64,000 nucleotides of DNA from an uncultured virus (IMG/VR IMGVR_UViG_3300025809_000016) (IMGVR_UViG_3300025809_000016); one strand, 5' to 3'. Shown: positions 3,001 to 43,003, numbered from the stretch's first letter. Numbers and translations are program-made. Notes: generated by a model from the sequence alone, not told the origin.

Positions 3001-3388
3001 TCGCTCGTCTATTATTGATGCCCGTAGTGGTTTAGGGGTAAACGGAAACCATATGAATGACGCAACCATTGTACGCTGGTTCCACTTGTGGGGCAAGAAG
3101 AACAATGTGTACACCGCTACAATTCACGATGGATTCTTCACCAACATATCTGATTCTCTTGCTGCAAAATGGCAACTGAGAGAACTCTATGCGAAAGCGG
3201 TAGAAGGTGACACACTGCTAAACACACTCAAAGAAATGAAAGCCCGAGGGCTATCTGAAGAGTCTTATGATCGACTTGTAAAGAAAGCAACTAGCATGGG
3301 ACTCCTCAATCCCGAAAATGGCATAACTGCCGCTGATATCATGGCTGACATCCCTGAAGGCTGGGACTGGTATGGTATTGGCCCGTAA
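2..3388 (+). CDS. Large T7-family single-subunit RNA polymerase, 5'-truncated by the window; candidate virion-packaged RNAP
   Basis: DGRGRVY motif, motif A ENDASASGAQ, motif B KGQSMVAFYG, NGNHMNDA and motif C TIHDGF. No stop codon in frame between 2 and the ATG at 101, so the gene probably starts upstream of the window. Confidence 0.9.
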   Translation, partial: TYSSKAVNNLQVAAARPSTLLSNKSVEKDLRNFMRAEANNTGSILSLVDFRGTSILGKKETRRRANNQFDERNVGVDPLTGETKSTLIYNPDFKVYQERLDFLEGSKLLKPEQKAWIKNFADSLENDGLSVNQQSAVVENLRVTFERFAKDKRPWENLAGVLRAEMKNSVVNTSRILDRRSKSRSQLFRFGKSGDQAQVQILGEWTTFDDITARALSNQRFVDNYAANEGLGFARKLYLSGRSPLRTYFPKPPATAGTLETVKKKMLKQIESLPFGKKFLDKYNGVPSDSALTKFLQAGNERKRRFLDLEWIYAKKKEDFLQRFVTPAFAKKRTKLLSEITKDIATGVSTDYDALSIQIGKKIFEAEKSDFDIFFRAPTIANYHKTGSEVLQGFKDAGKIKVGLRGVTRRGINDLESGRPQVGSFKDTISREIQVVDPNMLRLQRANRELNYARRIGITQDRDRLYVKAGSTKYFDSRGRKTSQSLITRKAGGNYDQNLVDRDFADMLNHTMDFEWETDVDIASFFDDLVRFRDPRGKVKYYDELNGFRQIIMQRGEQGSGMMQAIKWHNDNRTSWRNWTQIDGRGRVYTQGYLHPAGGEFVRPFLNTKVAKNISPEVTDELRIQLGTLVGEAFSVLTNEGRMRSFKANEKSFLEIGRLLTSKTQKDRNIREFLEHPLIRATEAEEVPKLARFALEYYRIHKHVDGDFTNEKLLRTYKTQLGNENDASASGAQVIALSTRDRALANASNVLATDRKNRLYDLVAERTMSDPDFQKINPLGNDLSFGDMAKAAKGQSMVAFYGAGQATQAGAIELKLAKILTHKDYLVVTAKDLTGFNKSLDRSITNATGDDALSVATALKQLKTEVNYSINNNVPVGNRLLSQVRDIHPDSELFVSKLTNVKGNIVGPAQFREIARIMSKHLKDIAPVTENFVSFWKEVAEVYITESKLVDIPWVTIDGKVLFQRYRPTVEERITFTDPVTGKKVSNIYEDSITDDKLVGRSSIIDARSGLGVNGNHMNDATIVRWFHLWGKKNNVYTATIHDGFFTNISDSLAAKWQLRELYAKAVEGDTLLNTLKEMKARGLSEESYDRLVKKATSMGLLNPENGITAADIMADIPEGWDWYGIGP

Positions 3389-5358: not shown

Positions 5359-5874
5359 ATGGCACTAGTAAAAGGAACCAATTCATACGTGACCTTGAAC
5401 GAAGCTGACAGTTACTTTGATGATCGCATGGATGTCTGTGAATGGACAAGTGCAACTGATGATCTAAAAGAACAAGCCCTTGTGACCGCTACTGCTTATC
5501 TCGATGAGTTAAGCTATGCTGGTCAAGTAGTCTCTTCGGAGCAAATGCTGGCTTTCCCTCGAACTGGGGTCTACACAGACCTTAGTCGGGGCGTTAGAGC
5601 ATACTTAAGTTCTACTTATACGTTTTTAGAGACTGATGAGACCGAAGCAAGTCTGAACAGAGACATACGTCTCCTACGAAAGGCTTGTTTCGAACTCAGT
5701 TTCCATATGGTAAGTAATGAAGGTGTTATGGATAAGTCCAGCACTTTTAAAAGCATCAAAGTTGGATCCATTGAGTTGGTCGGCGAAACTGCTGCTGAAA
5801 CCTTACCTTATAGTATTCTCAAACTCGTAAAACCAATGATGGCAAATAGTACTAGGTCTTGGGAAGGGTGGTAA
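5359..5874 (+). CDS. Head-tail connector (DnaT-like family)
   Basis: NSYVTL.EAD.YF...W......KEQAL..AT.YLD...Q.LAFPR signature. Confidence 0.8.
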   Translation: MALVKGTNSYVTLNEADSYFDDRMDVCEWTSATDDLKEQALVTATAYLDELSYAGQVVSSEQMLAFPRTGVYTDLSRGVRAYLSSTYTFLETDETEASLNRDIRLLRKACFELSFHMVSNEGVMDKSSTFKSIKVGSIELVGETAAETLPYSILKLVKPMMANSTRSWEGW

Positions 5875-26300: not shown

Positions 26301-28140
26301 CTTGAATGGTGGTACTCGCTTTATAAATGGTACTAACACAGCTTTAATCACAGGTACTCAGTATGTACTGTCTGCGGGAGATCCCGTAGGAATCAAGTTT
26401 GATGAAGATGGTCACTTAACGTTAATTGATTACAGCGGCACTACCCCTGTTGATATAGCGAAGACGACTATTCCTTTATCTGTTACTGAATTCAATCTTC
26501 AATACGGAACTTGGCAGTATCAGGTGTTCCCTAATGGGATTATCTCTACAAGTGATTGGACTATCGTTCACGACTTTGCTGGTACAGAAGCAGGGATTGT
26601 TAACGGTATCTTAGACCACACAGTACTAAAGTCGAACCTTAGCATTCTCCCCGGTGAGAAGATCATGTTCATGCTAGATGAAGTAGGTCAAGGTGACCGC
26701 TTTGGAACTAACTACACATCAGCTTCTACGGGTGTTTCTACTGCGGAAGAGCAGCTCGATAACGAGTTCATCTACCAAACCAATGAAGCGATAGTGCTAG
26801 ACCCTAGTGTTGGTGTTTCAGACTGGAACGCTAACACATCAGCATCTGGCTACTTCTACTCTGCGAATTTGAACCAGTATAGAGCAGGCGGTAATGCTGG
26901 AACTATTCAGGGTATGCACTCACTGAGATACCTTGCTGACAATAGTATTGAAATCTATGATGAAGACGCAAATGAGGTCATAGCAACCGCAAAGCAAGAT
27001 GGTGATGGCAGTGCTATCTCTCTCTACTTCGGTGTAAGAGGAAACAGAGCTTATTACTCTATACCTGTTATCTCCAAGCAGTCTGTGGGTTCACTCTCTC
27101 AGCCTGAGCTAACGTTTGCTCCTGACATCTCTGATCAAGCTTTCTCTATTACAGAAGGCGCAGCATTTAGTCTCCAGATAGCTTTGGATGCTGGTTCTGA
27201 CATTGTGAATATGTATGGCGAAAGTGATGCTCCCTCTTGGGCAGTCTTAGGACAAACGTCTGGGCAGTTCATTGGTACAGCTCCTGCCTTCAATGGCACC
27301 TCTGACAGCTATGTTATCAACTGTAAAGCGGGTAACGCTATCGGTGGTATCGTTAACTTCACGGTGACTTTGAATGTAGCAGAGATTGTTTATACTAACT
27401 CTAAGTCTTTGAAGTTTAGTGCTAACTCAAATGCTTATTTAGCAGGCCCTCACGCTACCGCCAATTCGATGGCAAGATCGGGAAATGGCAGTGGGTCAGC
27501 AGACGCTTGGAGCCTGTCTATGTGGGTCAAGCCTTCAAGCTCAACTAATGTACAAACCCTGTTCTACTACGGCGGTGATGATCTCACCAATGAAGGTAGG
27601 ATAGAGGTACAGCAGTTTAGCGGCAATAACGTCATGTTTAAGTATGGTAGCGCGAATAACTACTTGTACTTTATTGGAGTGGGTAATTTCCCTACTAACC
27701 AGTGGAACCACATCTTAGTCACCTATAACGGTGGAGCTACGGGTGTTAACCAAGCTGACATTTCTACGTATCTGACAAACTTTACCTTCTCTGTTAACGG
27801 TGCTAATGGTGCGTCTCAAGTGCAACATGGTAACTACGGCTACGCAGGTAGTATCATAGCTGACAGGTTTAGGATTGGTAGATTAGGAGGCGGCACTAGT
27901 ACTCAGTATATCTCAGATGGTATCATAAACCAAGTAGCTATTTGGGGTACAGATGAGAGCGCTAACCTAGCCACGATCTATAACAGTGGTGCTACTCAAG
28001 ATTTGAGTTTGCTAACTTCTGCTCCTCTTCACTACTACGAAATTGAAACTAGTGTAACCACTGTTCCTGATCTAATAGGGACTGCTGATTTGACTGGGTT
28101 CAACTTTGCTACTTCTGATTTGGTAACAGACGCTCCGTAA
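23326..28140 (+). CDS. Large repeat-containing fibre/adhesin with C-terminal LamG/ConA-like domain
   Basis: ATG overlaps the upstream TAA; about 37-aa repeats; Ig-like segment; WSLSMWVKP...WNHI.VTY...G.INQVAIW LamG motifs. Confidence 0.75.
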   Translation: MSYTIDLNNPKYNVSLSRVGAQGAKGTSVSNVVIDENDALMVTLVDGAGVVTETINAGTIVGVAPADLTVLSHWTFDPVNRKLISDVAIETTLNSIYLGEQHKMSSGSENIYFTNLTSDINFFPMWGGLKDQSITVNRDATGFIPPSGRIYSDMFSLPLGGQPNPLTSTGYAGDNYFGINIAGLGITTVAAEQVNEDVRLEYRITIAGNQVYMQELPRNALRSSAASIIYPNDVIEWFFDHPVDVRAGTTLFAEIHKVRKSDDVDLGIFQVRQGDTVDPNTGLYRYQATVHNRLFEDKDIELISPYLKYKAMDFSADSTGGVILLKDLTLAAGTELLIPHPVNTLQAIANGTEIQIKAKGGAKVIIESLPVTGVSIGGVLVNSVLNLAVTELNNLFTNTLSFASQGNPVNSFALSGNNLTLGLTDGTSYTVDVTTLGVDTDNFVSSAALNGSDLVLTMDDATLVTVDATTLLLDENDVVQSGTLVGDDLVLTLSNSQTVTIDVTALGLSSNATVVSGAMNNDNITLDLTMSDGSIIGIDVANLVVDPNTHVNFGNVVGNSLIMSLTDGSSVTVDVSTLNLDSNDYVVSGGLNADGINIDLVLNNGTTIQLPVAGLAVDNDTVITGGTVLGTDLRLTLSTGSIIIVDATDFTIDTDTTITSGAMNADGVNIDLTMSDATVVQIPVAALAVDTNTVVSSGLVNGTDLELTLSNGTVIVIDATAFTLAASVTVVSGAMNADGINLDLTMSDATTIQVDVSDLALDTNTVISSGAVVGTDIQLTLSSGVVVSVDATSLLLDTNDFVASGAMNADGVNIDLTMDSGTVIQIAVGDLALDTNNFVASGAVVGTDLVLTMSDATTITIDATTLATGSSTQVASGAVVGTDLILTMSDATTITIDALNMVNGSTMTATNDDWYISYGTNANDVVAVNNADNTIKNQQPFYFGQVLARGSEFRWNLNVVNQQRWGIWDGAQVASTYQVATDINNWNTCFNFLNGGTRFINGTNTALITGTQYVLSAGDPVGIKFDEDGHLTLIDYSGTTPVDIAKTTIPLSVTEFNLQYGTWQYQVFPNGIISTSDWTIVHDFAGTEAGIVNGILDHTVLKSNLSILPGEKIMFMLDEVGQGDRFGTNYTSASTGVSTAEEQLDNEFIYQTNEAIVLDPSVGVSDWNANTSASGYFYSANLNQYRAGGNAGTIQGMHSLRYLADNSIEIYDEDANEVIATAKQDGDGSAISLYFGVRGNRAYYSIPVISKQSVGSLSQPELTFAPDISDQAFSITEGAAFSLQIALDAGSDIVNMYGESDAPSWAVLGQTSGQFIGTAPAFNGTSDSYVINCKAGNAIGGIVNFTVTLNVAEIVYTNSKSLKFSANSNAYLAGPHATANSMARSGNGSGSADAWSLSMWVKPSSSTNVQTLFYYGGDDLTNEGRIEVQQFSGNNVMFKYGSANNYLYFIGVGNFPTNQWNHILVTYNGGATGVNQADISTYLTNFTFSVNGANGASQVQHGNYGYAGSIIADRFRIGRLGGGTSTQYISDGIINQVAIWGTDESANLATIYNSGATQDLSLLTSAPLHYYEIETSVTTVPDLIGTADLTGFNFATSDLVTDAP
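24540..26030 (+). repeat. Tandem array of about 13 repeats of about 37 aa in the fibre gene
   Basis: V.SGA..G.DL.LT.SD.T.I.ID.T.L units; DNA repeats such as AGCGGTGCTATGAATGCTGACGGT. Confidence 0.85.
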
Positions 28141-28159
28141 TACTTTTAGATGTAAATAT

Positions 28160-28194
28160 ACCCCCTTAAGGATCACTCCTTTTGGGGGTTTTTT
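28160..28194 (+). terminator. Intrinsic terminator ending the structural region
   Basis: ACCCCC..AAGGA-TCAC-TCCTT..GGGGGT followed by a T run. Confidence 0.8.
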
Positions 28195-28198
28195 ACGC

Positions 28199-28269
28199 TA
28201 AAAAGGGCCAAAAAAGTGAGAAAAAGGACGTATCTATAACGGAAGAATAAAAAGTAAAGCTAATCAAAA
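28199..28269 (+). promoter_or_regulatory. Class A promoter-like repeat, copy 1
   Basis: About 70 nt nearly identical to 28650-28721; core AAAAAGTGAG-N9-GTATCTATAACGGAAGAAT. Confidence 0.65.
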
Positions 28270-28283
28270 GGAACCAAGAAGAT

Positions 28284-28652
28284 ATGATTCACCAAGAAGT
28301 AGCAGCAATGTTGTTAAGCCTGTGTATGCAGTTAACCCTTGCGGGTTGCCCTGCACTCGTTGACTCACCGAAAGTACTTAAGCACCACTCACCCTCCGCA
28401 ACAATGATGTTCGCGGTTTCACAAACCCGGATAACAAAGGAAAAGAGGTACTACGTTTACTACTCACAAGCTTCTATAAAGGGCTTGAACCGAATGGAAA
28501 TACGTGGTGTCTTGGTACACGAACTGGCCCACTACATTTTGTATGTGGAGAAAGGATTGGACACCTCAAAGCATCAACGTCCGTTCCGAACTGAATGTCG
28601 CATACTCGCTAAATCGGCAGGAGAGGTAAGAACTTCTGTTTGTAGGCCTTAA
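28284..28652 (+). CDS. SprT-like zinc metalloprotease domain protein
   Basis: VLVHELAH...H..PF...C. Confidence 0.7.
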   Translation: MIHQEVAAMLLSLCMQLTLAGCPALVDSPKVLKHHSPSATMMFAVSQTRITKEKRYYVYYSQASIKGLNRMEIRGVLVHELAHYILYVEKGLDTSKHQRPFRTECRILAKSAGEVRTSVCRP

Positions 28653-28721
28653 AAAGGGCCTAAAAAAGTGAGAAAAAGGACGTATCTATAACGGAAGAAT
28701 AAAAAGTAAAGCTAATCAAAA
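28650..28721 (+). promoter_or_regulatory. Class A promoter-like repeat, copy 2
   Basis: Direct repeat of 28199-28269. Confidence 0.65.
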
Positions 28722-28762
28722 CCTTGTACTATCTATTAAAACTAAACCTAAAGGAATAAATC

Positions 28763-28870
28763 ATGAGCACTATCATCGCAGTAGTTGGAACATTCGTAGT
28801 AGTAAAGTTCGTATTAACAGTAATCATTAACGTTGCGCTTCTTGCAATAGTTAAGTTCTCTAAATTTTAA
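28763..28870 (+). CDS. 35-aa hydrophobic peptide
   Basis: MSTIIAVVGTFVVVKFVLTVIINVALLAIVKFSKF, preceded by the repeated leader and AAGGAA RBS. Confidence 0.55.
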   Translation: MSTIIAVVGTFVVVKFVLTVIINVALLAIVKFSKF

Positions 28871-28921
28871 TCTTAGCCCTTAAACTAAATCTATTAAAAC
28901 TAAACCTAAAGGAAGTATATT

Positions 28922-29326
28922 ATGTATAACGTAAGCACTATCACTATCAACACTTTTAACACAACTGCCATCAACGATTCAATCAACTACAAAGTTGCAG
29001 CGATTCGAACAATGGCTATCACTAACTTTAAGAAGGTATTTAAAAGAAGCGTCAACTGGGTAGCATCCTCAGTTATGGGTTCTAAAGAACGAGCGGAAGT
29101 AACTATGTTTGTAGTTGCCTCTGTGTTCTCAGCACTGGCAATGATGGCTACAGTACCTGTTGTAGGTGTTGTACCCGCACTTGTTATCTCGTTTCTTGCT
29201 TCACACATGATGGCAGAACTGACAGCAAAAGTAAGTATTGTTGCTGTCGCTGTAGTCGTAAGTACCGCCCTTGCTACTGTAGCTGCTCTTGCTGCAATCG
29301 TAATCGGTGTTGCTCACTTCGTATAG
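28922..29326 (+). CDS. Hypothetical membrane protein
   Basis: Several hydrophobic segments; repeated leader upstream. Confidence 0.7.
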   Translation: MYNVSTITINTFNTTAINDSINYKVAAIRTMAITNFKKVFKRSVNWVASSVMGSKERAEVTMFVVASVFSALAMMATVPVVGVVPALVISFLASHMMAELTAKVSIVAVAVVVSTALATVAALAAIVIGVAHFV

Positions 29327-29380
29327 TAAGAGCCTAATATTAACCTTTAACAGTTTTGGGGAAGTCAAATAATCCCTAGC

Positions 29381-29484
29381 TAGCTCCTTTTCGAACCGCA
29401 TCTACCGGATGCCGTTGTTAAGTTGAGCGTGAGCTATAAACCTCTTTGTTCGAATCCTAGCTAAAGGCAGGGTTGCTCAAAGAG
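29381..29484 (+). ncRNA. Candidate structured RNA with possible double pseudoknot
   Basis: Stems TAGCTC/GAGCTA, GCATC/GATGC, CTCTTTG/CAAAGAG, AATCCT/AGGGTT; cross-pairings TTCGAAC/GTTCGAA and TTGAGC/GCTCAA. Confidence 0.4.
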
Positions 29485-29493
29485 AAGAAGACA

Positions 29494-29550
29494 GTCGAAA
29501 CACTTATAGTGTCTGTAAGGATTAATCCCCTTGCACTGATGAGACAGATT
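29494..29550 (+). ncRNA. Type II hammerhead ribozyme, copy 1
   Basis: gtc-GAAA-cac-ttata-gtg-TC^-tgtaagg-attaatcc-ccttgca-CTGATGA-gac; loop AATC can pair with 3' GATT; predicted cleavage after C29513. Confidence 0.9.
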
Positions 29551-29592
29551 CTTAACTAAATCTATTAAACTAAATCTATTAAGGAATTAAAT

Positions 29593-29796
29593 ATGTTTTT
29601 ACTTGAATATGTTATGCACGTAGTAATTGGTATCATGTTGATCGGTGGTGTTTTCGCTTGTATAGGAACACTCACTGTTGCTCTTCACTCAGTATGTAAG
29701 GTGATCGGTATGATTCGTGATATCCTTCTTCACCATTGGTTTGCTACATTTGTAGCTTTCTCTGTAATCTATTTTGGAGTAACATCTATTCAGTAG
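29593..29796 (+). CDS. Small membrane protein
   Basis: Two hydrophobic segments; leader repeat and RBS. Confidence 0.6.
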   Translation: MFLLEYVMHVVIGIMLIGGVFACIGTLTVALHSVCKVIGMIRDILLHHWFATFVAFSVIYFGVTSIQ

Positions 29797-29933
29797 AGAC
29801 AGTGCCTGAGTTATTATTCCGAGGGTTTAGTAGGTCTCAGATCACGGTTTACACTAAGGAATTCTGTTCTAATACAGAGTTTGCTTGCTCAAATCTTTTA
29901 CAAGTGGCTTACTTATACGGGAGTTTAAATGAA

Positions 29934-30383
29934 ATGAAGTTTGATGTAGTAGTAGGAAACCCTCCCTATCAGGGAAGTGGCAATGCTCAATTGTGGGCAG
30001 AATTCGTAAGGATTGCTATAGACCATACTGAGGATAACGGAGTTATCAGTCTCATCCACCCACCGGGTTGGAGAACCTATGATTCCAAAAACAAACTTGC
30101 TGCGGAGATGTTCCAGTACGACATTACGAGTATCACTATGCGTAACAAGGCTGACACTAATGTGCTCTTCAATGGTGCGGCAGCAATCTGTATGAGCCAA
30201 CGTCAAGCAGTAAGAGAAGTAATGCTAGAAGAGTTCCGGTATCTGATCAACAACATGCAGAACTGGCCCGAAGACTTCTTTGAGTGTGAGCAAGGTCAAA
30301 GCCAACTAGCCTACGAAGAGTTAGTTGAGCTTGTCCAGTATGCAATCAAAGACCTTAACGCTAAGGGGCTGCAGAGTGAATGA
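29934..30383 (+). CDS. N6-adenine DNA methyltransferase catalytic (motif IV) fragment
   Basis: MKFDVVVGNPPY...LW..FV......G..SLIHP..W; no SAM-binding motif I; GGGAG RBS upstream of 29934. Confidence 0.7.
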   Translation: MKFDVVVGNPPYQGSGNAQLWAEFVRIAIDHTEDNGVISLIHPPGWRTYDSKNKLAAEMFQYDITSITMRNKADTNVLFNGAAAICMSQRQAVREVMLEEFRYLINNMQNWPEDFFECEQGQSQLAYEELVELVQYAIKDLNAKGLQSE

Positions 30384-30633
30384 TATCGTGATGCAGTTCA
30401 GTCAGGTGTTTGTACTCGCTTCTTCACTAGTTGCTTGTACGTTAATCACTAGTACAGACCCGAAGAGAAGGATACAAGCTTTTGCTTTGTTCCTAATATC
30501 AACAGTGCCAGATGTGTACATCTCTGTAGTATGCGAGTTATGGGTGTTCGTAGCCATAGCTCCTTACTATGTAGGTTTAAATGTCTGGGGTATCAAAAAT
30601 AATCTTAAACTAATAAAGGAAAATAAAGTATGA
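30376..30633 (+). CDS. Small multi-TM membrane protein
   Basis: Three hydrophobic segments; start uncertain. Confidence 0.5.
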   Translation: MNDIVMQFSQVFVLASSLVACTLITSTDPKRRIQAFALFLISTVPDVYISVVCELWVFVAIAPYYVGLNVWGIKNNLKLIKENKV

Positions 30634-30775
30634 ATGATAAAATACAGATAAACACAAAAGGGCAAACAGACATTTACGAGACAGATGGGATCACAACGGT
30701 CACTAATAGTCTCTACACAATCACCGTTTACCCAGATGGTGACATAGAAGTAGTTGCACATGAGGAAGATCAAGT

Positions 30776-31222
30776 ATGAAGACACTCGTAGCACTAATAG
30801 CACTAATGTCCTTCGGGGCTTACGCTGATCAAACTATAATCAAAGGAGTAAGTAATGATAACAAGACTAGTACAGATAGTAGTGTTGACCTACGTTATTA
30901 TATGGGCGCTTATGGTAATAAAAGGGCCTCTGTTATTCGCGATCTATCCCGTAGCTCTGGAAGTTACAGTGCTGATGGCACTGCTGGCATTAGTGCTACT
31001 GGTGATATTGCTGATAAAAGAAGTGGCATTGGTGACAATGGGCTTGCTAAAGCTGTTGCTGCCGCGAAGTTGGTTCGAGAAGCCGGGGCTTGGAACACCA
31101 AATTCAATTACAACCGTAGGGAAGTAGCACTGTCTTTAGGTACACCTAAGAACGATAAAACCCTTAAGCTCTCTCTAGATTCTAAAGGTAAAGCAGCCTT
31201 TGGTTTCCAGATGAGCCTATAA
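30776..31222 (+). CDS. Exported protein with YadA-like C-terminal anchor (putative)
   Basis: Signal peptide MKTLVALIALMSFGAYA; G.A.A.A helix then beta strands ending AAFGFQMSL. Confidence 0.5.
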   Translation: MKTLVALIALMSFGAYADQTIIKGVSNDNKTSTDSSVDLRYYMGAYGNKRASVIRDLSRSSGSYSADGTAGISATGDIADKRSGIGDNGLAKAVAAAKLVREAGAWNTKFNYNRREVALSLGTPKNDKTLKLSLDSKGKAAFGFQMSL

Positions 31223-31350
31223 CATAACTTTAAATAAAAGGATAAGTAAATGAGCGTATTAGCACCAGTAGCATTAGTATTAGCAATCTTGATCACAGCA
31301 GTAGTAATCGGTTATGTAGTAAGAGATGTACTAAAGGAGCAAAGGTAACA

Positions 31351-31641
31351 ATGAAATTTAGCGAGTATCAGGACAACGCAGTTAGATTTAAGAAGTTCCA
31401 AAAGAGTTCAGATGATTTCTTTATTGGATTGTCAGCAGAGGTAGGTGAGTTAATGTCAGAGCGTATGCGTGAGAATCGGATTGACCGAACACCACGAGGA
31501 CGCAAAGAGATCAAAGCTGAACTCGGGGACATCTTGTGGTACGTCACTGCTATTGCAGATGAGTACAATCTGGATCTTGAGGACATAGCTAACTATAACA
31601 TCTTTAAACTGGAGCAAAGAAAGGCAGGAAAAAGTGAGTAG
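31351..31641 (+). CDS. MazG-like nucleotide pyrophosphohydrolase
   Basis: EYQ..A, GL..EVGE, ELGDILWY....A......LEDIA..N..KL..R. Confidence 0.88.
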   Translation: MKFSEYQDNAVRFKKFQKSSDDFFIGLSAEVGELMSERMRENRIDRTPRGRKEIKAELGDILWYVTAIADEYNLDLEDIANYNIFKLEQRKAGKSE

Positions 31642-31666
31642 AAGTCTGTATCTATAACGGAAGAAT
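31629..31666 (+). promoter_or_regulatory. Class A promoter-like repeat, copy 3
   Basis: AAAAAGTGAG-tagaagtct-GTATCTATAACGGAAGAAT; same boxes, different 9-nt spacer. Confidence 0.65.
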
Positions 31667-31721
31667 TAAAAGAAGTAACCTTAAACTAAATCTATTAAAA
31701 CTAAACCTAAAGGAATATATT

Positions 31722-31829
31722 ATGTTTTTACTTGACTGTATTGCAATCGCTGTTGTTGTTAGTGTAATCGTAGCTGGTACTGTTGTTATCGGCGGTGTTG
31801 TCTTTCTATTAATAGAAGGGAGCGTTTAA
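31722..31829 (+). CDS. 35-aa hydrophobic peptide
   Basis: MFLLDCIAIAVVVSVIVAGTVVIGGVVFLLIEGSV after the leader repeat; N-terminus resembles ORF 29593. Confidence 0.55.
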   Translation: MFLLDCIAIAVVVSVIVAGTVVIGGVVFLLIEGSV

Positions 31830-31984
31830 GCAATGAAAGATTTCGCAACTAACGAAGCAGTTACAGATGTGCTTATCAAAGCCCTAGCGGTAGTAGTGGT
31901 AATAAGTCTTACCAACCTATACTGTGTGCTTTAAATCAAACCTTAAACTAAATCTATTAAAACTAAATCTAAAGGAAATATATT

Positions 31985-32293
31985 ATGTGTAATAAAGACC
32001 CAAGAGGTTGTACGAGTTCGTGTACTTTTGAGAGTGATTGTCGTTGTGACAGACAGTGTCGTTGTGACAAGCGGTGTAGAATGGAATCAGAAAACAAGAA
32101 TGTAATCCTCGCTGTACTGGTGATTAGCTTTGTTTGTTGGATCCTCAGTATGACTATCTGGGTTATTGGCCCAGTAGTAGTCCTTGCCGGGTTCGTCTAT
32201 GCTTCATACAAAGCAGTTCAGTGCATGAAGAAAGCTAACGCTGCAGCTCTTGCAAAGATGGAACGAATGAAGAAAGCGTGGAAAGAGTCTTAA
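31985..32293 (+). CDS. Membrane protein with Cys-rich N-terminus
   Basis: Eight Cys in the first 31 aa, then two TM segments. Confidence 0.65.
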   Translation: MCNKDPRGCTSSCTFESDCRCDRQCRCDKRCRMESENKNVILAVLVISFVCWILSMTIWVIGPVVVLAGFVYASYKAVQCMKKANAAALAKMERMKKAWKES

Positions 32294-32331
32294 ACTAAAT
32301 CTATTAAAACTAAATCTAAAGGAAGTATAAA

Positions 32332-32544
32332 ATGAAAACATTATTGAAAGCAGTAGTAGCACTAGTATTCGCAGTAACTATAACCCTTGTACCTATACTG
32401 ATAGTACTAGATATTAACTCCAAGAACTCTGAAGTAAGTAAAGAAGACACTTGTCGCGCCCTAGAGGAGATGAGAAGCCTTACCAAAGATCACAAGAAAG
32501 GTATCGAAGATTTCTCTTGGATGAATTGTGAGCAATACCTGTAA
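32332..32544 (+). CDS. Small single-TM protein
   Basis: N-terminal TM segment; leader repeat upstream. Confidence 0.6.
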   Translation: MKTLLKAVVALVFAVTITLVPILIVLDINSKNSEVSKEDTCRALEEMRSLTKDHKKGIEDFSWMNCEQYL

Positions 32545-32576
32545 ATCTATTAAAACTAAACCTAAAGGAATATAAC

Positions 32577-32867
32577 ATGATCCAGAAACTATATCACGGC
32601 TGTTCAGCAGCTAACGTTGAAGAAGTAATGAAGAACATCAAAGTAACTGCTCGTGGGTTTCATATGACACCTGATATTGAGATTGCTAAAGAGTATGGTT
32701 CCAAGGTTGTCTGCTTCGAAGTAGAACCTTTTGAATCACACGTTGGCACTCTTAACAAAGGTGGCAGCTTTGAAGAAGACATTAAATCAGGTATAGAGTA
32801 TGTATTGAAGAACGAATACCACTTGGTATCCTTCTACAAGAACCTCGAAGACCTGTATGTTGTTTAA
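32577..32867 (+). CDS. ADP-ribosyltransferase-fold protein (putative)
   Basis: LYHGCS...GFHMT.D.EIA.EYG...EYVL matches the H-Y-E ART layout. Confidence 0.55.
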   Translation: MIQKLYHGCSAANVEEVMKNIKVTARGFHMTPDIEIAKEYGSKVVCFEVEPFESHVGTLNKGGSFEEDIKSGIEYVLKNEYHLVSFYKNLEDLYVV

Positions 32868-33051
32868 CCCTGTCACTAAGGAGGACGTATGTCAAAGTTA
32901 GAGGAAAACGTAGTCTACGAATTCCAAAACTGTATACCACCGGGATGGCATGAGCTCAGTGTAAGATACGAAACCAATATGTTTGGTGAGCGAATAGCGT
33001 TCATTAAGTGTATCTCTGAAAAACCTATATCTATTAAATAAGGAAGTAATT

Positions 33052-33417
33052 ATGTATTGTTCAAATTGTGGTACTAAGAACGAAGAAGGTCAAGCTGTAT
33101 GTAGTAAGTGTTTCTTTGCTATCAAGTCTAACGTCAAGTCTCCCAAGACGGACACGGGTGAAGGCTATGACATCAAGGACTCTAACGGTAAATCTAGGGT
33201 TGTAGCAATGGTATTCGCTTGGTTCTTAGGAGCCTTCGGTGGTCATTGGTTCTACCTTGGTAACGAGAAGCGTGGTTGGATAACTTTGATAGCAGGTGTG
33301 GTAGGGTTGGTATTAGTGCTACCCCTGTTCATAACAGCTATCCTATCCCTCGTTCACTTCATTAAGTTAGCTACCATAGCTGACACAGCAGCATTTGATG
33401 AGTTTAGCGCTGAATAG
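33052..33417 (+). CDS. Zinc-ribbon plus TM2 domain protein
   Basis: MYCSNCG..C.KC; KSR.VA..AWFLG.FG.H.FYLG. Confidence 0.85.
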   Translation: MYCSNCGTKNEEGQAVCSKCFFAIKSNVKSPKTDTGEGYDIKDSNGKSRVVAMVFAWFLGAFGGHWFYLGNEKRGWITLIAGVVGLVLVLPLFITAILSLVHFIKLATIADTAAFDEFSAE

Positions 33418-33426
33418 GAGATTCAA

Positions 33427-33642
33427 ATGAACTATGAAGACAGAGAGACATTAATAAAAGAAATCACAGAACAGATTGAAGAGATTATGGCTGACGAAAA
33501 AGAGGAGATATTCCCTGCGCTAAATGATATGGTCAGGTACTTCTCTGTTTGGTTTCTAGCCGCAAATAGTGAAGACTTGTCCTATTCAGAAAAGACAGAT
33601 CTAATATGGATAGCGGTAAGACGAGCGAGTGTTACCCTGTAG
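33427..33642 (+). CDS. Hypothetical protein
   Basis: GGAG RBS; stop codon abuts the hammerhead. Confidence 0.6.
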   Translation: MNYEDRETLIKEITEQIEEIMADEKEEIFPALNDMVRYFSVWFLAANSEDLSYSEKTDLIWIAVRRASVTL

Positions 33643-33701
33643 TCGAAACATCCTTCGGGATGTCTGTAAGGAATAATCCCCTTGCACTGATGAGACAGAT
33701 T
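33642..33701 (+). ncRNA. Type II hammerhead ribozyme, copy 2
   Basis: gtc-GAAA-catcc-ttcg-ggatg-TC^-tgtaagg-aataatcc-ccttgca-CTGATGA-gac-a-GATT; stem III differs from copy 1 but keeps pairing; predicted cleavage after C33664. Confidence 0.92.
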
Positions 33702-33726
33702 CTTACTTTTAATAAGGAATACCTAT

Positions 33727-34014
33727 ATGATGAACCAATCTACTGTACCTGCTGACTTCTCAACTATCTTTGAGACTGTTGCTGATATTAAAATAGATTC
33801 AAACTCGGTGTACGATGCTGTAAGTAAGTTAGGCCTTGACCTTGCTATTGAGAGAGAAGCTAAGTTGCAACTGTTTTTCAACATTAAGAATAACAGGCAA
33901 AAACTTAACATCGATCCAGAGCAAGTATCCTCTCTCGTAAAAACCATTTATGGTTATATGGAAGAAGACTACCTTGATCAAGTTATAACTTCTTTCGAAG
34001 CGGAGTACAAATAA
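33727..34014 (+). CDS. Hypothetical protein
   Basis: AAGGAA RBS just downstream of the hammerhead. Confidence 0.65.
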   Translation: MMNQSTVPADFSTIFETVADIKIDSNSVYDAVSKLGLDLAIEREAKLQLFFNIKNNRQKLNIDPEQVSSLVKTIYGYMEEDYLDQVITSFEAEYK

Positions 34015-34226
34015 TGTTAACCATAAACAATGCAGTTGCAACAACTCTTACTACTACACCTAAAATGGAAAATACTATGGATGCTAAAAGATTCGATTCA
34101 ATGTCACTACGCCAGAAAGCTTACTACCCCTTCACCGATGAAGAGTGGAGCGCAATGGATAAAGGTATGAAGAAGAGAGTCTTTTTTGCTCGTAAGAAGT
34201 TTAAGGAACAGCAACAACAATCGTAA
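34014..34226 (+). CDS. Hypothetical protein
   Basis: TAATG coupling to the upstream gene. Confidence 0.5.
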   Translation: MLTINNAVATTLTTTPKMENTMDAKRFDSMSLRQKAYYPFTDEEWSAMDKGMKKRVFFARKKFKEQQQQS

Positions 34227-34232
34227 CACCCC

Positions 34233-34339
34233 TCCCCTGCGCTACGCAGAATTTAAAAGGCACTATGGATGATCTTGATTGATCACTCTATAGCACCTTT
34301 TAAATTCGCGTAGCGCAGGGGAACCCACTCTTTTTTTTT
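34233..34339 (+). promoter_or_regulatory. 90-nt inverted repeat containing a class B promoter (34279-34293), followed by T9
   Basis: TCCCCTGCGCTACGC/GCGTAGCGCAGGGGA, GAATTTAAAAGG/CCTTTTAAATTC; TTGATCACTCTATAG in the loop and 3' arm. Confidence 0.75.
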
Positions 34340-34363
34340 GTTATACTAAGGAAGTAAACTTTA

Positions 34364-36634
34364 ATGCGAGAAGAAATAATTGCGAGCCTGTCAGAAAGAC
34401 TACTCACAGCTAAAGACGGTCGTAGCCATGTACATTGGTTGTGGGCGCACCTTACTAAAGACGGAGCAGATCCTGCTATTCTTATCGAGCAAATCTACAA
34501 GCTGGTTGTAAGTAAGGTTGTAATAGGTGTGATCCAAGGAGCATCGATGACATCGGTAGCAGTATCTATCGGTTCATCAATACGCCTTATGGTCAAAGAG
34601 GAACCTCTAAAGGAAGAGACCAAAGCCGCTGTACACTTAGGTGTCAAAGTATTGGAAGCCTTCTGTGTACAAGGAAACCCCAAGGGCATAGATCTCTTGG
34701 ATATTAAACTAATGAACAGAGGTAGGAACTCTGGATCAAAAGATAACGCAGTATACGCGCTCACCTGTACCAACGAAGAGAACCTAGAGACTATCATCCT
34801 CGGTGAGGACATAGAGCAATCTCCTGAGTTCCCTCTGCTGGAACCCGCAATGGACTGGGTAACATCATTCCATCCTGACCTTCGGGTCTCTATGATACGA
34901 GGTGCTTCATCACGTACACTTAAGAGGATGACACCACTGTCTGCCCCTCGAGTATACGCCGCATTGAACAAGATGCAGAAGACACCTTACCTTATTAACC
35001 AGAAAGTATTTAAAGTATATGAGAAACTTCTATCGACACAATCGAAAGAAGAAATGCTCAAGCGAGACTATAAGCTCTCTCCTGACTCCCCGTTTAAACA
35101 CGAGAAGGAAGAGATGGTTTCAAGTCGAGCGGGTATGTATCTTGAAGCTGAGTTCATTAAGACAATGGCTAACAAGATTGGCACTAGAGACTTCTATCAG
35201 GCTTACAACTGTGACTTTCGTGGTCGCATATATCCGATGACACCTTACTTGAACGAGCAAAGCTCTGACAACGCTAAGGGTTTAATTAGGTATCGTGAAG
35301 CGGTTCCACTGGGAGAAGACGGCGCTTACTGGATGGCTGTGCACACTGCTAACTGTATCGGAGAGGACAAACTTGAACTCGATGACAGAGCGCAGTATGT
35401 AGTAGACCGTCTAGACGAGATTTACAGCTGGGCAAAAGACCCACTTGTGAACATAGGTTGGATGAAGACAGACAAACCGTGGTCAGTGTTAGCTATGGCA
35501 TTCGAGTGGCATCAGTTGCACTATTGGGAACATCTTGGTGGTAACGACCCCGAAGATTACCTTTGTCCTGTACCAATCTTTATCGATGGCTCCAACAACG
35601 GTGTTCAACATTTGACCGCTTTGTCACTTGATCACTCTATAGCACCCCTCGTTAATCTTGTACCAACAAAGATGCCCGGAGACGTATATATGTATGTCGC
35701 CGATAAGACTTGGGAGGCACTAGATGTCCTGATGGAAGCTCTGGATCACCCTGTGAAAACAGAGATGCCACGCTTGCTTGAGGAGATCAAGAACATCAAG
35801 CTCAAAAGAGAACGTGCTGAAACAAAGGAAGATAAGAATGCTGCTTACGAAGAACTTGACGAATGGCGAAAAACCAACCGCGAGTACGAGAAGCAGATAT
35901 TTATACCCTTCTGGAGTATGTACAAAGATGACCGTAAGCTACAACGAAAGAGTGTTAAGCGACCCGTAATGACTTTAGGCTACGGAGTTACAAGACAAGG
36001 CGTAAGGGATCAGATATTTGATGATACCAAAGGCCTGTCTGAAGAACTCAAGTTTAAGGATAAGTCGTGGTCTAACCCTTTTGCTGACTTACTTAGAGAT
36101 ACTATGCTTGCCAAGCTCAAAGGCCCTGCGGATATGCTCAAGCTCTTTCAAGACTTAGCAAACCGAGCCAATGACAAAGGTGAGTTCTTGTCGTGGAATG
36201 TTCCTATAACGAACTTCCCCGCTGTGCAAGAGTACCTCAAGACCAAGGAAGATCGTATACGAGTACGCTTCTGCGGTGCTAACAAAGGTAAGGGTATTCA
36301 ACTTACTATACAACCCAAAGAAACTGGGAAGCTAGACAAAAGAAAGCAGGCAACAGGTGCTGCTCCTAATATCGTTCATTCGTTTGATGCCGCGCATCTT
36401 ACAATGATCGTCAACGCACCAGACTTCATTGTTACCACGATACACGACAGCTTCGGTTGTCATCCGGGTAACATGGGAGATCTGTTCAGGATCACGAGGG
36501 AAACCTTTGTTGAGTTCTATACGTCCGATCCGCTAGCTCAACTGCTGGCACAGACAGATAGCCTTGACATATTTCCAGAACGTGGCAACCTCGACTTAAC
36601 AGCTGTGCTTGATTCCGATTTCGCATTCTGCTAA
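34364..36634 (+). CDS. T7-like DNA-directed RNA polymerase (second RNAP)
   Basis: DFRGRIYP, DGSNNGVQH (motif A), RKSVKRPVMTLGYG (motif B), PNIVHSFDAAH, IHDSFG (motif C), C-terminal FAFC. Confidence 0.97.
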   Translation: MREEIIASLSERLLTAKDGRSHVHWLWAHLTKDGADPAILIEQIYKLVVSKVVIGVIQGASMTSVAVSIGSSIRLMVKEEPLKEETKAAVHLGVKVLEAFCVQGNPKGIDLLDIKLMNRGRNSGSKDNAVYALTCTNEENLETIILGEDIEQSPEFPLLEPAMDWVTSFHPDLRVSMIRGASSRTLKRMTPLSAPRVYAALNKMQKTPYLINQKVFKVYEKLLSTQSKEEMLKRDYKLSPDSPFKHEKEEMVSSRAGMYLEAEFIKTMANKIGTRDFYQAYNCDFRGRIYPMTPYLNEQSSDNAKGLIRYREAVPLGEDGAYWMAVHTANCIGEDKLELDDRAQYVVDRLDEIYSWAKDPLVNIGWMKTDKPWSVLAMAFEWHQLHYWEHLGGNDPEDYLCPVPIFIDGSNNGVQHLTALSLDHSIAPLVNLVPTKMPGDVYMYVADKTWEALDVLMEALDHPVKTEMPRLLEEIKNIKLKRERAETKEDKNAAYEELDEWRKTNREYEKQIFIPFWSMYKDDRKLQRKSVKRPVMTLGYGVTRQGVRDQIFDDTKGLSEELKFKDKSWSNPFADLLRDTMLAKLKGPADMLKLFQDLANRANDKGEFLSWNVPITNFPAVQEYLKTKEDRIRVRFCGANKGKGIQLTIQPKETGKLDKRKQATGAAPNIVHSFDAAHLTMIVNAPDFIVTTIHDSFGCHPGNMGDLFRITRETFVEFYTSDPLAQLLAQTDSLDIFPERGNLDLTAVLDSDFAFC
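35628..35642 (+). promoter_or_regulatory. Class B promoter motif inside the RNAP gene
   Basis: TTGATCACTCTATAG(CACC), 19 nt identical to the copy at 34279. Confidence 0.55.
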
Positions 36635-36702
36635 GTACGTACTAAACTTCACTAGAAACGCCCATACGGGGCAAACACTAAACTTATAAGAGAATATTAA
36701 AC

Positions 36703-37203
36703 ATGACTACATCAACTATAGTAATCCGTAACACTGAACTTTTCTGGGCAAAGCTTGACACTCCAGTAGACCCTTTTGACCACGGCCCACGATGGGAAAT
36801 CCAGATTCGAACTCGGGATAAAGAAGTCAGAAGCGAATGGGAAGGTCACGGATTCAAGGTCACTTTGAAAGAAGACGACAATGGTTCTTACTACCAAGTA
36901 AACCTTAATCGTAAAGCTTTCACTAAGAAAGGTGACCAGAGAGATCCAATCAAATGTGTTGATGCACAGCTGATGCCTCTTGACGGTGCCACTATTGGCA
37001 ACGGTTCTATCGGTAATGTTCAGATCGAAACTTACGCTTGGGACTTCAAAGGTAAGTCCGGAACAGGTTTCTCTGTCAAAGCTATCCAAGTAACTAAGCT
37101 CGTTGAGTTTAAGCGCTCTGGTGGTGGTATTGAATTCGAGATCGAAGGCGAGACCGAGATTGTTGTACCAACTGACAGCTCTGATGATGATAACGAATGG
37201 TAG
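36703..37203 (+). CDS. T7 gp2.5-like single-stranded DNA-binding protein
   Basis: IGNGS.G.V and AIQV.KLVE motifs; acidic tail ending in an aromatic residue (DDDNEW). Confidence 0.8.
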   Translation: MTTSTIVIRNTELFWAKLDTPVDPFDHGPRWEIQIRTRDKEVRSEWEGHGFKVTLKEDDNGSYYQVNLNRKAFTKKGDQRDPIKCVDAQLMPLDGATIGNGSIGNVQIETYAWDFKGKSGTGFSVKAIQVTKLVEFKRSGGGIEFEIEGETEIVVPTDSSDDDNEW

Positions 37204-40430: not shown

Positions 40431-41830
40431 ATGAGCAAGAAATATGTATGGGATTTAGAAGCTAACGGCCTGTTAAAAGGCAATAAGCTAAGTGAAGCAG
40501 CAAATAAGATATGGATGATTGTCGCTACAGATCTTGAGACAAAGGAGACATTCGTCTTCTGTGATCACACTGAGGACAAGACTGCCAAGCCTTTGCTGGA
40601 CTTTAAGATATTGTTTGATGATGCGAAGGAGCTTATCGGACACAACATTATCAACTATGACTTCCCTGTACTGAGAAAGATCCTCGGATGGGAGCCTAAC
40701 AAAAAGACAGTAATCAGAGATACCCTCTTGATGTCACAGATGTTAGACTACATGCGATTTGGCGGGAGACACAGCCTCGAGTTATGGGGTAATCACCTTG
40801 GAGTTCAAAAGCCTGTTCACGAGGATTGGCTTAACTTCAGTGAGGATATGGTTCACCGTTGTAAAGAAGATGTCAAGATCAACGAGAGGGTATACAGGCT
40901 ACTTGCGAGAGAGCTTACTAATTACCTGAAGGCGAGCAAGACACCTCAGTATATGAAGACTAGTCTACGTGTTGAGCATAGGATAGCTGAGTTTCAAGCA
41001 CAAGCCTCCCGTACCGGTTGGGTGTTTGATATGAAGCGAGCCTTAGAGCTTGAAGCAGAGATGATCAAGGAGCTAGAGGATACTAGGGCAGAGATTGAGC
41101 CTAGGATGCCTATGCGCTTGAAGATCTTAGACAAGGAGGGTTCTAAGAGTGAGTTCAAGGTTCCTGAGTATAAGAAGAACGGTGACTACTACGCGAGTAC
41201 AGTTGCTCACTTCCAAGCCGAAGGATCACACATCATTAACGCTGATGAGGCTAAGACTACCAGACCTCTAGACGGCCCTTTCTGCCGTGTTAGATACTTG
41301 GAAGCAGACTTGGGCTCGATTGACTATCTTAAGACGTACTTGTACGGTCTTGGATGGGAACCTCTTGACTGGAACTGGGAGAAGAAGGATGGTAAGTTTG
41401 TCAAGAAGTCTGCAAAGCTCTGTCCTGAATCACTAAGGGCATTAGGGCCAGAAGGCGCTAGGATTGATGACTTCACTACCACGCGCTCTAGACTCGGTAT
41501 TCTCCGTGGTTGGATTGCTAACACAGACCCAGAGACTAACAGGATATGCGGTGAGATGTTCACTATTGCTACTCCTACAGGTCGAGCACGACACAAGACG
41601 ATCGTTAATGTTCCTAGTCCCAACGCTGCTTGGGGTAAGGAGATGCGTGGTCTCTTTGGTTGTAGACCGGGTTATAAGGTAGTAGGCTCAGACTCCTCTG
41701 GTAATCAGTTTAGGGCTCTTTGTCACTACATCAAGAACGACGAATTCACCAATGAAGTTATAAACGGTGATGTTCACCAGAAGAATGCTGATGTTTTAGG
41801 TTGTGACAGACCTACAGCAAAGCCGTGGAT
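40431..41830 (+). CDS. Family A (T7-like) DNA polymerase, exon 1
   Basis: DLEANG ExoI, GHNII.YD ExoII, HSL..WG, TGR..H..VNVP, DSSG motif A, start of motif B RPTAKPW. Confidence 0.95.
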
Positions 41831-42504
41831 TGGTAATAGGTCTACGTTAAATTATGTGAACTCAGGGAACATCTCGTAAGAGACAATCCTGAGCCAAGCC
41901 AAGTAAGGAGTTTGTATGGGTTACCAAGAGAAAGTATGTACTGAATGTGAGGGGTCTTTTAAACCTTATGTTCACAACCAAAACAAGTGTGACGGTTGTC
42001 TTGATGTGATCCGAACTAAACCCTGTAAACTATGCAGTGAAACCTTCAACCCTACCACAATACGAGAGGACTATTGCTCGACAGGCTGCAGAAATGCACA
42101 GAATATGATAGGGAGGAAGAGAGCAGGTTACTACACACGAGAGGTGTACTTACAGTATCGATCTGTGAGTGAATGCCAGATCTGTGGAAGTGAAGGCTTC
42201 GCCATGCAAGGCGGAGATGAATCTTCTAAGCTATGTTTAGATCATAAGCATGGTACAGATTTCGTGAGAGGTAAGCTGTGTCACAATTGTAACAGGGCGC
42301 TCGGTCTTTTTCAAGACAACCCTGAGTTGCTTAAAGTTGCAGCTAAATACTTGGAAGGTGCAGAGACTATCCTGAAAGGGAGTACACTCAAGTGAGTGGA
42401 AGCGCATAACGCCGCAAGGTGATGATATAGTCCGGTCTGCATGGTGACATGCAGCAGTTCATAAGAGAACGGGAGCAGCCTAACGCACTGCTTCGAACAT
42501 CCCG
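41831..42504 (+). mobile_element. Group I intron (IA2-like), 674 nt, in DNA polymerase motif B
   Basis: P1 CGTGGAT/GTCTACG with U.G at the splice site; P3 TTATGTG/CGCATAA; P4 TCAGG/CCTGA; P7 GACTAT/ATAGTC with P7.1 and P7.2; terminal G; splicing restores AKPWIYAFLFG. Confidence 0.93.
41916..42395 (+). CDS. Intron-encoded homing endonuclease, EndoVII-type His-Me finger
   Basis: C.IC...LCLDH.H....VRG.LC..CN..LG...D; N-terminal CxxC repeats; AAGGAG RBS. Confidence 0.88.
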   Translation: MGYQEKVCTECEGSFKPYVHNQNKCDGCLDVIRTKPCKLCSETFNPTTIREDYCSTGCRNAQNMIGRKRAGYYTREVYLQYRSVSECQICGSEGFAMQGGDESSKLCLDHKHGTDFVRGKLCHNCNRALGLFQDNPELLKVAAKYLEGAETILKGSTLK

Positions 42505-43003
42505 CTATGCCTTTCTCTTCGGAGCAGGGTTAGAAAAATTAGGGCTCATCCTTACGGGGAAGAGAGACAAAAAGGCTGGTGGCGAGTCTAAGAAGAAGTT
42601 CGTAAACTCAATTCCGGGTTTCAAGCTTCTTATTGACAAGCTGAATACTATCGTACACGGCTCTGAAGCAAGAGACTCACGCGCTAGCATCCCTGCCCTT
42701 GATGGTCGCAGGATCTATCTTGACTCTGGTCACAAAGCACTTAACTATCTCCTGCAGTCTGCGGAAGGTATTACGTGTAAAGCTGCTGTTGCATACACGA
42801 TGGATAAGTTTAAAGAAGAGGGCATTGATGCCGAACCTTTGATCTTCTATCACGATGAACAACAGTGGGAAGTAAGAGAAGACCAAACAGCTAGAGCTGC
42901 TGAAATCTGTGAAGAAGCATTCCGCGAGGCCCCTAAGTGGTTCGGCGTGACATGTATGGATGGGGAAGCAATGGTTGGCGATAACTGGTATGAAACACAC
43001 TAA
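42505..43003 (+). CDS. Family A DNA polymerase, exon 2
   Basis: YAFLFG, LDGR, ALNYLLQS, HDE motif C, NWYETH; spliced CDS is 1899 nt (632 aa). Confidence 0.95.

Follow-up and report, generated by a model that had tools for sequence, protein, structure and literature searches.

Natural type II hammerhead ribozymes carrying a pseudoknot were described in phage and prophage genomes by Perreault et al. 2011 (PMC3088659), who proposed that they process transcripts into operon- or gene-length mRNAs, and reported that clustered prophage hammerheads cleave both in vitro and in E. coli, and that the 5' end of an early transcript of halovirus HF2 lies at most 3 nucleotides (nt) from a hammerhead site. 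Three type II hammerheads of D. vulgaris, located near phage-like genes, were later found to cleave in vivo (Olzog et al. 2021, PMC8782182). According to a 2019 review (PMC6765202), the purpose of bacterial and phage hammerheads has yet to be defined and "additional work is needed". Here, we analyze two motifs of this class, named HH1 (upstream) and HH2 (downstream), in a 64 kb stretch of DNA from an uncultured virus (IMGVR_UViG_3300025809_000016), hereafter the window, to which all coordinates refer (Table 1). Both motifs are almost certainly genuine type II hammerheads, and they probably act within a rightward early RNA of the phage, cutting themselves and uncoupling the downstream message.

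The core required of a hammerhead (C3 U4 G5 A6 N7 G8 A9, G12 A13 A14, A15.1-U16.1, and H17; methods of PMC3088659) is present in both copies as CUGAUGA, GAAA, and GUC, with C at position 17. Model alignments gave both of them the type II topology, with stems I and III closed by loops and stem II open, and stems I and III were also predicted in both by ViennaRNA. The pairs next to the core (10.1-11.1, 1.1-2.1, and 15.1-16.1) are G-C, U-A, and A-U in the two copies, without any mispair, and are 100% paired across the 12 related copies described below. Most type II hammerheads have, in addition, a pseudoknot in which at least 4 bp connect loop I with the bases immediately past stem II (PMC3088659), found here as AAUC/GAUU (4 bp) in both copies. 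From the 3' strand of stem III to the tail, HH1 and HH2 are identical at 44 of 45 nt (29510-29554 and 33661-33705), and their stem III sequences are unrelated. Reading of the sequence thus bore out what a preliminary description of this locus had reported, namely the full core, stems, pseudoknot, cut sites, and a 4151-nt segment (29514-33664) between the predicted cuts, with each hammerhead just upstream of a ribosome-binding site (RBS), as AAGGA and an ATG follow both of them.

The comparison with the Rfam Hammerhead_II model (RF02276, gathering cut-off of 37 bits) put forward in that description gave a divided answer. HH2 scored 42.4 bits (match at 33641-33704) and was the only gathering-level Rfam match in the whole window, where no other ribozyme class was detected at that level, whereas HH1 remained under the cut-off, with 31.5 bits (E 3.4e-5) on 111 nt. 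The low score of HH1 is due to its short stem III, and its absence from a 501-nt Rfam search at E<=10 was caused by filter loss. A second model, R1, was built from 31 distinct hammerheads of the commonest length from other viral contigs, which were among the matches listed when a generic core pattern was scanned over viral contigs (at least 134 stretches); these were aligned without gaps and given the textbook structure. Applied to the two strands of the 64 kb with its filters disabled, R1 returned HH2 with 69.3 bits (E 2.5e-18) and HH1 with 55.4 bits (E 3.4e-14), while the third-best of the 18 matches listed reached 12.6 bits (E 0.17). From this gap, it follows that the window contains exactly two hammerheads.

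A degenerate 39-nt pattern gave seven matches in six viral contigs, in addition to the cultured Roseobacter phage CRP-7. Twelve related copies from the window, CRP-7, and viral contigs were then aligned to R1 (alignment A3), with the pseudoknot added by hand. In this alignment, 96.2% of 235 cells were paired and 14 of the 20 pairs, pseudoknot included, showed changes on both sides, cell counts that are inflated by near-identical rows and by the fitting of A3 to the model structure, the pseudoknot lying outside the model. No shuffled alignment (0 of 500) reached any of the five measures used, and slid registers gave 27-44% pairing. Within the pseudoknot, three of the four pairs had changes on both sides and the helix was 85.4% paired, the unpaired cells coming from contigs L150 and L151, in which the pseudoknot lies one column away; the outer pair of the helix appears in relatives as A-U, G-C, or U-A. 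These compensatory changes in the three stems and the pseudoknot are, on comparative grounds, the mark of selection for structure. The preliminary description had drawn this argument from stem III (cac/gtg versus catcc/ggatg), rightly so, because compensatory changes are found across the 12 copies.

The position of hammerheads relative to genes was analyzed in 143 distinct pattern hits in viral contigs (L010-L143), among the matches listed, including around 17 in which no clean stem III is seen and which may be fortuitous. The stop codon of a long open reading frame (ORF) was found 4-8 nt before CGAAAC in 102 of them, against 42 of 1989 random places (2%), and a Shine-Dalgarno sequence with a start codon appeared at most 57 nt downstream in 122, compared with 514 of 2208 positions drawn at random from these loci; with longer-string removal of duplicates, the latter count was 123 of 145. 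HH2 obeys both rules, with AAGGA located 13 nt and ATG 26 nt past its pseudoknot. The direct observations comprise the motifs themselves, the way in which they are conserved and covary, and where they lie with respect to stop codon and RBS. In contigs where stop codon and RBS are packed in this way, the ribozyme takes up the entire intergenic gap. It could be argued that this packing is itself functional and more than simple compaction: with the stop codon inside or right next to the 5' strand of stem II, as at HH2, a terminating ribosome would cover stem II, GAAA, and half of stem III, so that folding and cutting would have to wait until ribosomes have cleared the upstream cistron. We regard this as very unlikely; if true, the hammerhead would be a switch that senses translation and sets the time at which adjacent messages are parted.

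According to the explanation that we favour, HH1 and HH2 would be transcribed in the rightward early RNA of the phage, and each would most likely cut itself co-transcriptionally, after C29513 and after C33664, respectively. The products, 2',3'-cyclic phosphate and 5'-OH ends, are those of textbook chemistry (PMC8782182), as the preliminary description had indicated. The upstream RNA would end in the stem III hairpin with its cyclic phosphate, which at HH2 lies 22 nt beyond the upstream stop codon, and the first nucleotide of the downstream RNA, with its 5'-OH, would already belong to the stem I hairpin, the next RBS lying 67 nt (HH1) or 49 nt (HH2) further on. In the predicted 3' products, the stem I hairpin starts at nucleotide 1 and the RBS is unpaired in the centroid structure. 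The likely effect would be the uncoupling of the downstream message from the upstream one in stability and translation; at HH2, this message would comprise, in this order, the 95-amino acid (aa) gene, a 70-aa gene, and the RNA polymerase gene. Self-processing of polycistronic phage RNA is plausible, and its proposal dates from Perreault et al. 2011 (PMC3088659).

Table 1. Coordinates of the two hammerheads and of neighbouring features in the 64 kb window.
Feature	Coordinates	Strand	Details
HH1, type II hammerhead	29491-29559	+	Short stem III (5 bp, 3-nt loop)
HH1 stem II	29494-29496 / 29543-29545		GUC / GAC
HH1 GAAA	29497-29500
HH1 stem III	29500-29504 / 29508-29512		Loop UAU
HH1 C17	29513		Predicted cut C29513 / U29514
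HH1 stem I	29514-29520 / 29529-29535
HH1 CUGAUGA	29536-29542
HH1 pseudoknot	29524-29527 / 29547-29550		Loop I AAUC / GAUU in 3' tail
HH2, type II hammerhead	33639-33710	+	6-bp stem III, UUCG loop
HH2 stem II	33642-33644 / 33694-33696		GUC / GAC
HH2 stem III	33648-33653 / 33658-33663		Loop UUCG
HH2 C17	33664		Predicted cut C33664 / U33665
HH2 stem I	33665-33671 / 33680-33686
HH2 CUGAUGA	33687-33693
HH2 pseudoknot	33675-33678 / 33698-33701		AAUC / GAUU
RBS and first gene after HH1	29581-29796	+	AAGGA 29581-29585, ATG 29593, 67 aa
Block between cuts	29593-33642	+	Around 14 small ORFs
71-aa gene upstream of HH2	33427-33642	+	Stop TAG 33640-33642 overlaps first bases of the ribozyme
RBS and gene after HH2	33714-34014	+	AAGGA 33714-33718, ATG 33727, 95 aa
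70-nt promoter-like repeat	28200-28269, 28652-28721, 31618-31687	+	Third copy within the 4.15-kb block
RNA-polymerase-like protein	101-3388		1095 aa, within structural module; PF00940 E 5e-7; phrog_414 E 8e-25
Terminator-like hairpin	28163-28194
Small-ORF series	28284-34226	+	PHROGs and Pfam scans
Early-type genes upstream of HH1	28284-28652, 28763-28870, 28922-29326		First one SprT-like
Single-subunit (T7-type) RNA polymerase gene	34364-36634	+	phrog_414 E 6e-138; 0.65 kb 3' of HH2

Several points weigh against this explanation. Cleavage in vivo, as well as any effect on the stability or translation of the mRNAs, is something that we infer. In addition to the score of HH1 under the Rfam cut-off and the inflated cell counts of A3, the minimum free energy z-scores of the motifs alone (-1.10 and -1.38, ViennaRNA) were not significant, and HH1 departs from the usual stop-codon layout, being preceded by a 164-nt gap without ORFs. 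Moreover, a hammerhead was found at the HH2 site in two of the five relatives that keep the downstream gene. Homologues of this 95-aa gene were detected in L145, L148, and L149 by tblastn and in L150 by BLASTP (27% identity over 83 aa, E 1e-8), the gene of L151 resembling it by eye only. In L145, L148, and L149, a short gap without any hammerhead (filters off) precedes the homologue, whereas L150 and L151, both relatives by their polymerase, have more distant hammerheads (39.8 and 36.6 bits) directly before it, with different stem I, stem III, and pseudoknot; in L150, the stop codon of the upstream ORF falls within the first bases of the ribozyme. The position of the hammerhead at the HH2 site is thus conserved where it is present, yet the element is dispensable.

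No hammerhead was detected in L144, L152, L153, and L154 (filters off), nor in the nearest record, G001, whose coverage excludes positions 27000-37000; L146 and L147, with little upstream DNA, were searched with default filters only. On the HH1 side, no related loci were found through the methylase-like protein, nor by tblastn of the HH1-adjacent ORFs against 19 loci. CRP-7 presents a homologous hammerhead at positions 570-633 (50.1 bits, Rfam), and this 64-nt element was the only blastn match of a 5.1-kb region of the window in 50,697 phage records; the word "hammerhead" is absent from the accessible portion of the CRP-7 paper (PMC6918029).

This patchy distribution could mean that the ribozymes do cleave but are passengers, that is, portable cassettes of hammerhead plus leader, which recombination would carry from one marine phage to another and from place to place within a genome, at little or no gain for this phage. 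The CRP-7 match, isolated in an otherwise unmatched region, and the near identity of HH1 and HH2 outside their unrelated stems III would fit such an origin. The same applies to module swapping, also seen in other contigs: hammerheads of one genome often have one module in common, either the 3' half or stem III, while the other module is different (the window pair, L005, L047, L043, and L094), which suggests recombination between copies of the same genome. The median 3'-half identity is 0.775 within loci (20 pairs) versus 0.67 between loci (400 pairs). However, compensatory changes in every helix reveal that a foldable ribozyme has been selected for over the long term, L150 and L151 retain a hammerhead in front of the same gene while its sequence has diverged, and the tight packing between stop codon and RBS extends to the whole family, so we consider it unlikely that the elements are passengers.

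The gap before HH1 suggested a second alternative, in which a primary transcript would start within these 164 nt, so that HH1 would be close to its 5' end and would remove its triphosphate leader, giving the first message of the block a 5'-OH hairpin at its start. A stretch of this length without ORF sets HH1 apart from the 102 of 143 family members with the stop-codon layout among the matches listed, the homologous hammerhead of CRP-7 likewise comes after a gap of around 250 nt, and in halovirus HF2 the 5' end of an early transcript coincides with a hammerhead site (PMC3088659). On the other hand, the search for a sigma-70-like site from 28924 to 29500 was negative, the 70-nt promoter-like repeat does not occur in the gap, and the conserved sequence that precedes the hammerhead in CRP-7 is single-copy there (at most 3 mismatches), unlike a promoter that is reused. 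Such a role for HH1 is therefore quite improbable. The conserved 24-mer that precedes CRP-7-type hammerheads had been considered as a promoter and was dropped, as it occurs once in CRP-7. The possibility that the gap before HH1 is a structured RNA or a tRNA remnant was also discarded, as ARAGORN found no tRNA, Rfam gave chance-level matches only, and the fold was not significant (z -1.44). The gap contains GTTCGAATCC, the usual tRNA T-loop sequence, at 29449-29458, with unpaired flanks.

In contrast to the self-processing into separate linear messages discussed above, the preliminary description had suggested that a ligase of the RtcB type could close the 4151-nt piece into a circular mRNA. 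Its 2',3'-cyclic phosphate and 5'-OH ends would indeed be substrates of RtcB (PMC8782182), and circles were raised as a possibility by Perreault et al. (PMC3088659), although circular or spliced products were looked for and not detected in that work. In the window, no RtcB, RNA ligase, or polynucleotide kinase was found among the ORFs with PHROGs and Pfam scans, the two ends lie in different hairpins that no predicted feature joins, and the copy of the promoter-like repeat at 31618-31687, together with weak terminator-like sites at 29743 and 31775, argues against a uniform 4.15-kb species. The segment is also far from the small, mostly non-coding repeat unit of viroid-like RNAs and retrozymes, as its 4151 nt are coding, single copy, and without tandem repeats. 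We consider circularization extremely improbable, so that from the preliminary description the real, structure-selected hammerheads before RBSs were retained and the circular RNA was not.

The same holds in part for its view that the two ribozymes bracket the early genes. Both flank the 4.15-kb block, which includes an Eco57I-type methylase domain, a MazG protein, and a TM2/zinc-ribbon protein, but early-type genes are also found upstream of HH1 (28284-29326), so HH1 and HH2 do not delimit the whole early block. Because of these upstream genes and the internal promoter-like repeat, the 4151-nt RNA is not necessarily the main species. The core of this repeat, GTATCTATAACGGAAGAAT, is exact in the three copies, against 0.01 expected, and no good -35 box accompanies it; the repeats are candidate early promoters. 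In seawater contigs, the core has a depth of around 300 and C28240 is read as T, which changes TATAAC into TATAAT. Between HH1 and its RBS, an A/U-rich leader repeat was found (29554-29585). It is related to a 26-nt A/U-rich leader ending in AAGGA that precedes six other early genes (28731-28756, 28889-28914, 31690-31715, 31952-31977, 32299-32324, and 32545-32570), possibly as a shared translation-initiation region.

Concerning the whole window, its long ORFs all lie on the + strand, with the two + strand hammerheads among them, each in a gap before an RBS. According to PHROGs and Pfam scans, the module up to 28140 is structural (scaffold, major head, tail, and a 2127-aa tape measure), and the RNA-polymerase-like protein encoded within it might travel in the virion and transcribe the early genes. 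The label "early" for the small genes is our inference from their location upstream of the T7-type polymerase gene, past which replication and nucleotide-metabolism genes follow. This polymerase shows 37% identity to that of the Naomviridae roseophage DSS3_VP1 (tblastn) and 40-78% to 11 IMG/VR contigs, and the DNA runs containing the window stretch are marine or seawater metagenomes, none of the runs listed for 28100-34400 being recorded as RNA. The phage is marine, tailed, and siphophage-like, with its own T7-type RNA polymerase, and a distant relative of the Naomviridae. Four DNA contig runs over the region (X2, X3, X4, and X11) revealed a mosaic population of related phages, and the early region is mosaic within this population; the runs also contain repeat-induced joints at both hammerheads ("goes back 4151/4190"). 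In seawater contigs of three runs, 149 nt are skipped at 32871-33021 and replaced by 9 other letters, with loss of a 50-aa ORF (32889-33041). In addition, an endonuclease VII-like ORF (41916-42395) separates the two pieces of the family A DNA polymerase gene (40431-41879 and 42449-43003). In the closest relatives, L145 (at 5571-5856) and also L146, a group I intron (RF00028, 86.5 bits) splits the RNA polymerase gene, unlike that of the window, which has no interruption.

In phage T7, the early mRNA is cut between cistrons by host RNase III on long hairpins, producing 5'-phosphate and 3'-OH ends, and RiboJ is an engineered, synthetic insulator. By analogy, HH1 and HH2 would resemble both in that intercistronic cuts leave hairpins at the ends and make adjacent messages independent in their fate, without any homology to either of them. 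Among natural systems, the type II hammerheads of RF02276 and Perreault et al. share with HH1 and HH2 the core, the open stem II of 2-3 bp, the closed stems I and III, and the 4-bp pseudoknot right after stem II, and differ from HH1 in its unusually short stem III and sub-cut-off score; the ribozymes here are carried by an uncultured marine phage and by relatives of it instead of prophages. As in clustered hammerheads, two copies occur on the coding strand within the gaps of one phage gene cluster. The triple hammerheads around ardA of Agrobacterium tumefaciens (PMC3088659) similarly comprise several ribozymes on the coding strand between genes, and the same processing was suggested for them, with circles already considered there. 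In contrast to that cluster, only two hammerheads are present here, 4.15 kb and around 14 ORFs apart, in a phage of lytic type that encodes its own RNA polymerase. Haloviruses HF1 and HF2 also have a hammerhead in the early region, just upstream of a start codon (PMC3088659), but they are archaeal viruses whose core-variant hammerhead precedes the first gene of an early polycistronic transcript, and no sequence homology exists. Finally, the D. vulgaris hammerheads are likewise of type II and in a phage-linked context, with in vivo cleavage detected by cyPhyRNA-seq (PMC8782182), but they belong to a bacterial chromosome.

In conclusion, the arrangement found here is another example of the one described in 2011 and leaves existing knowledge unchanged. 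It adds a phage lineage, marine and siphophage-like with a T7-type RNA polymerase, to those that place type II hammerheads before genes, and its one practical gain is the homologous copy in the cultured phage CRP-7, which offers a tractable system for the function of these hammerheads.

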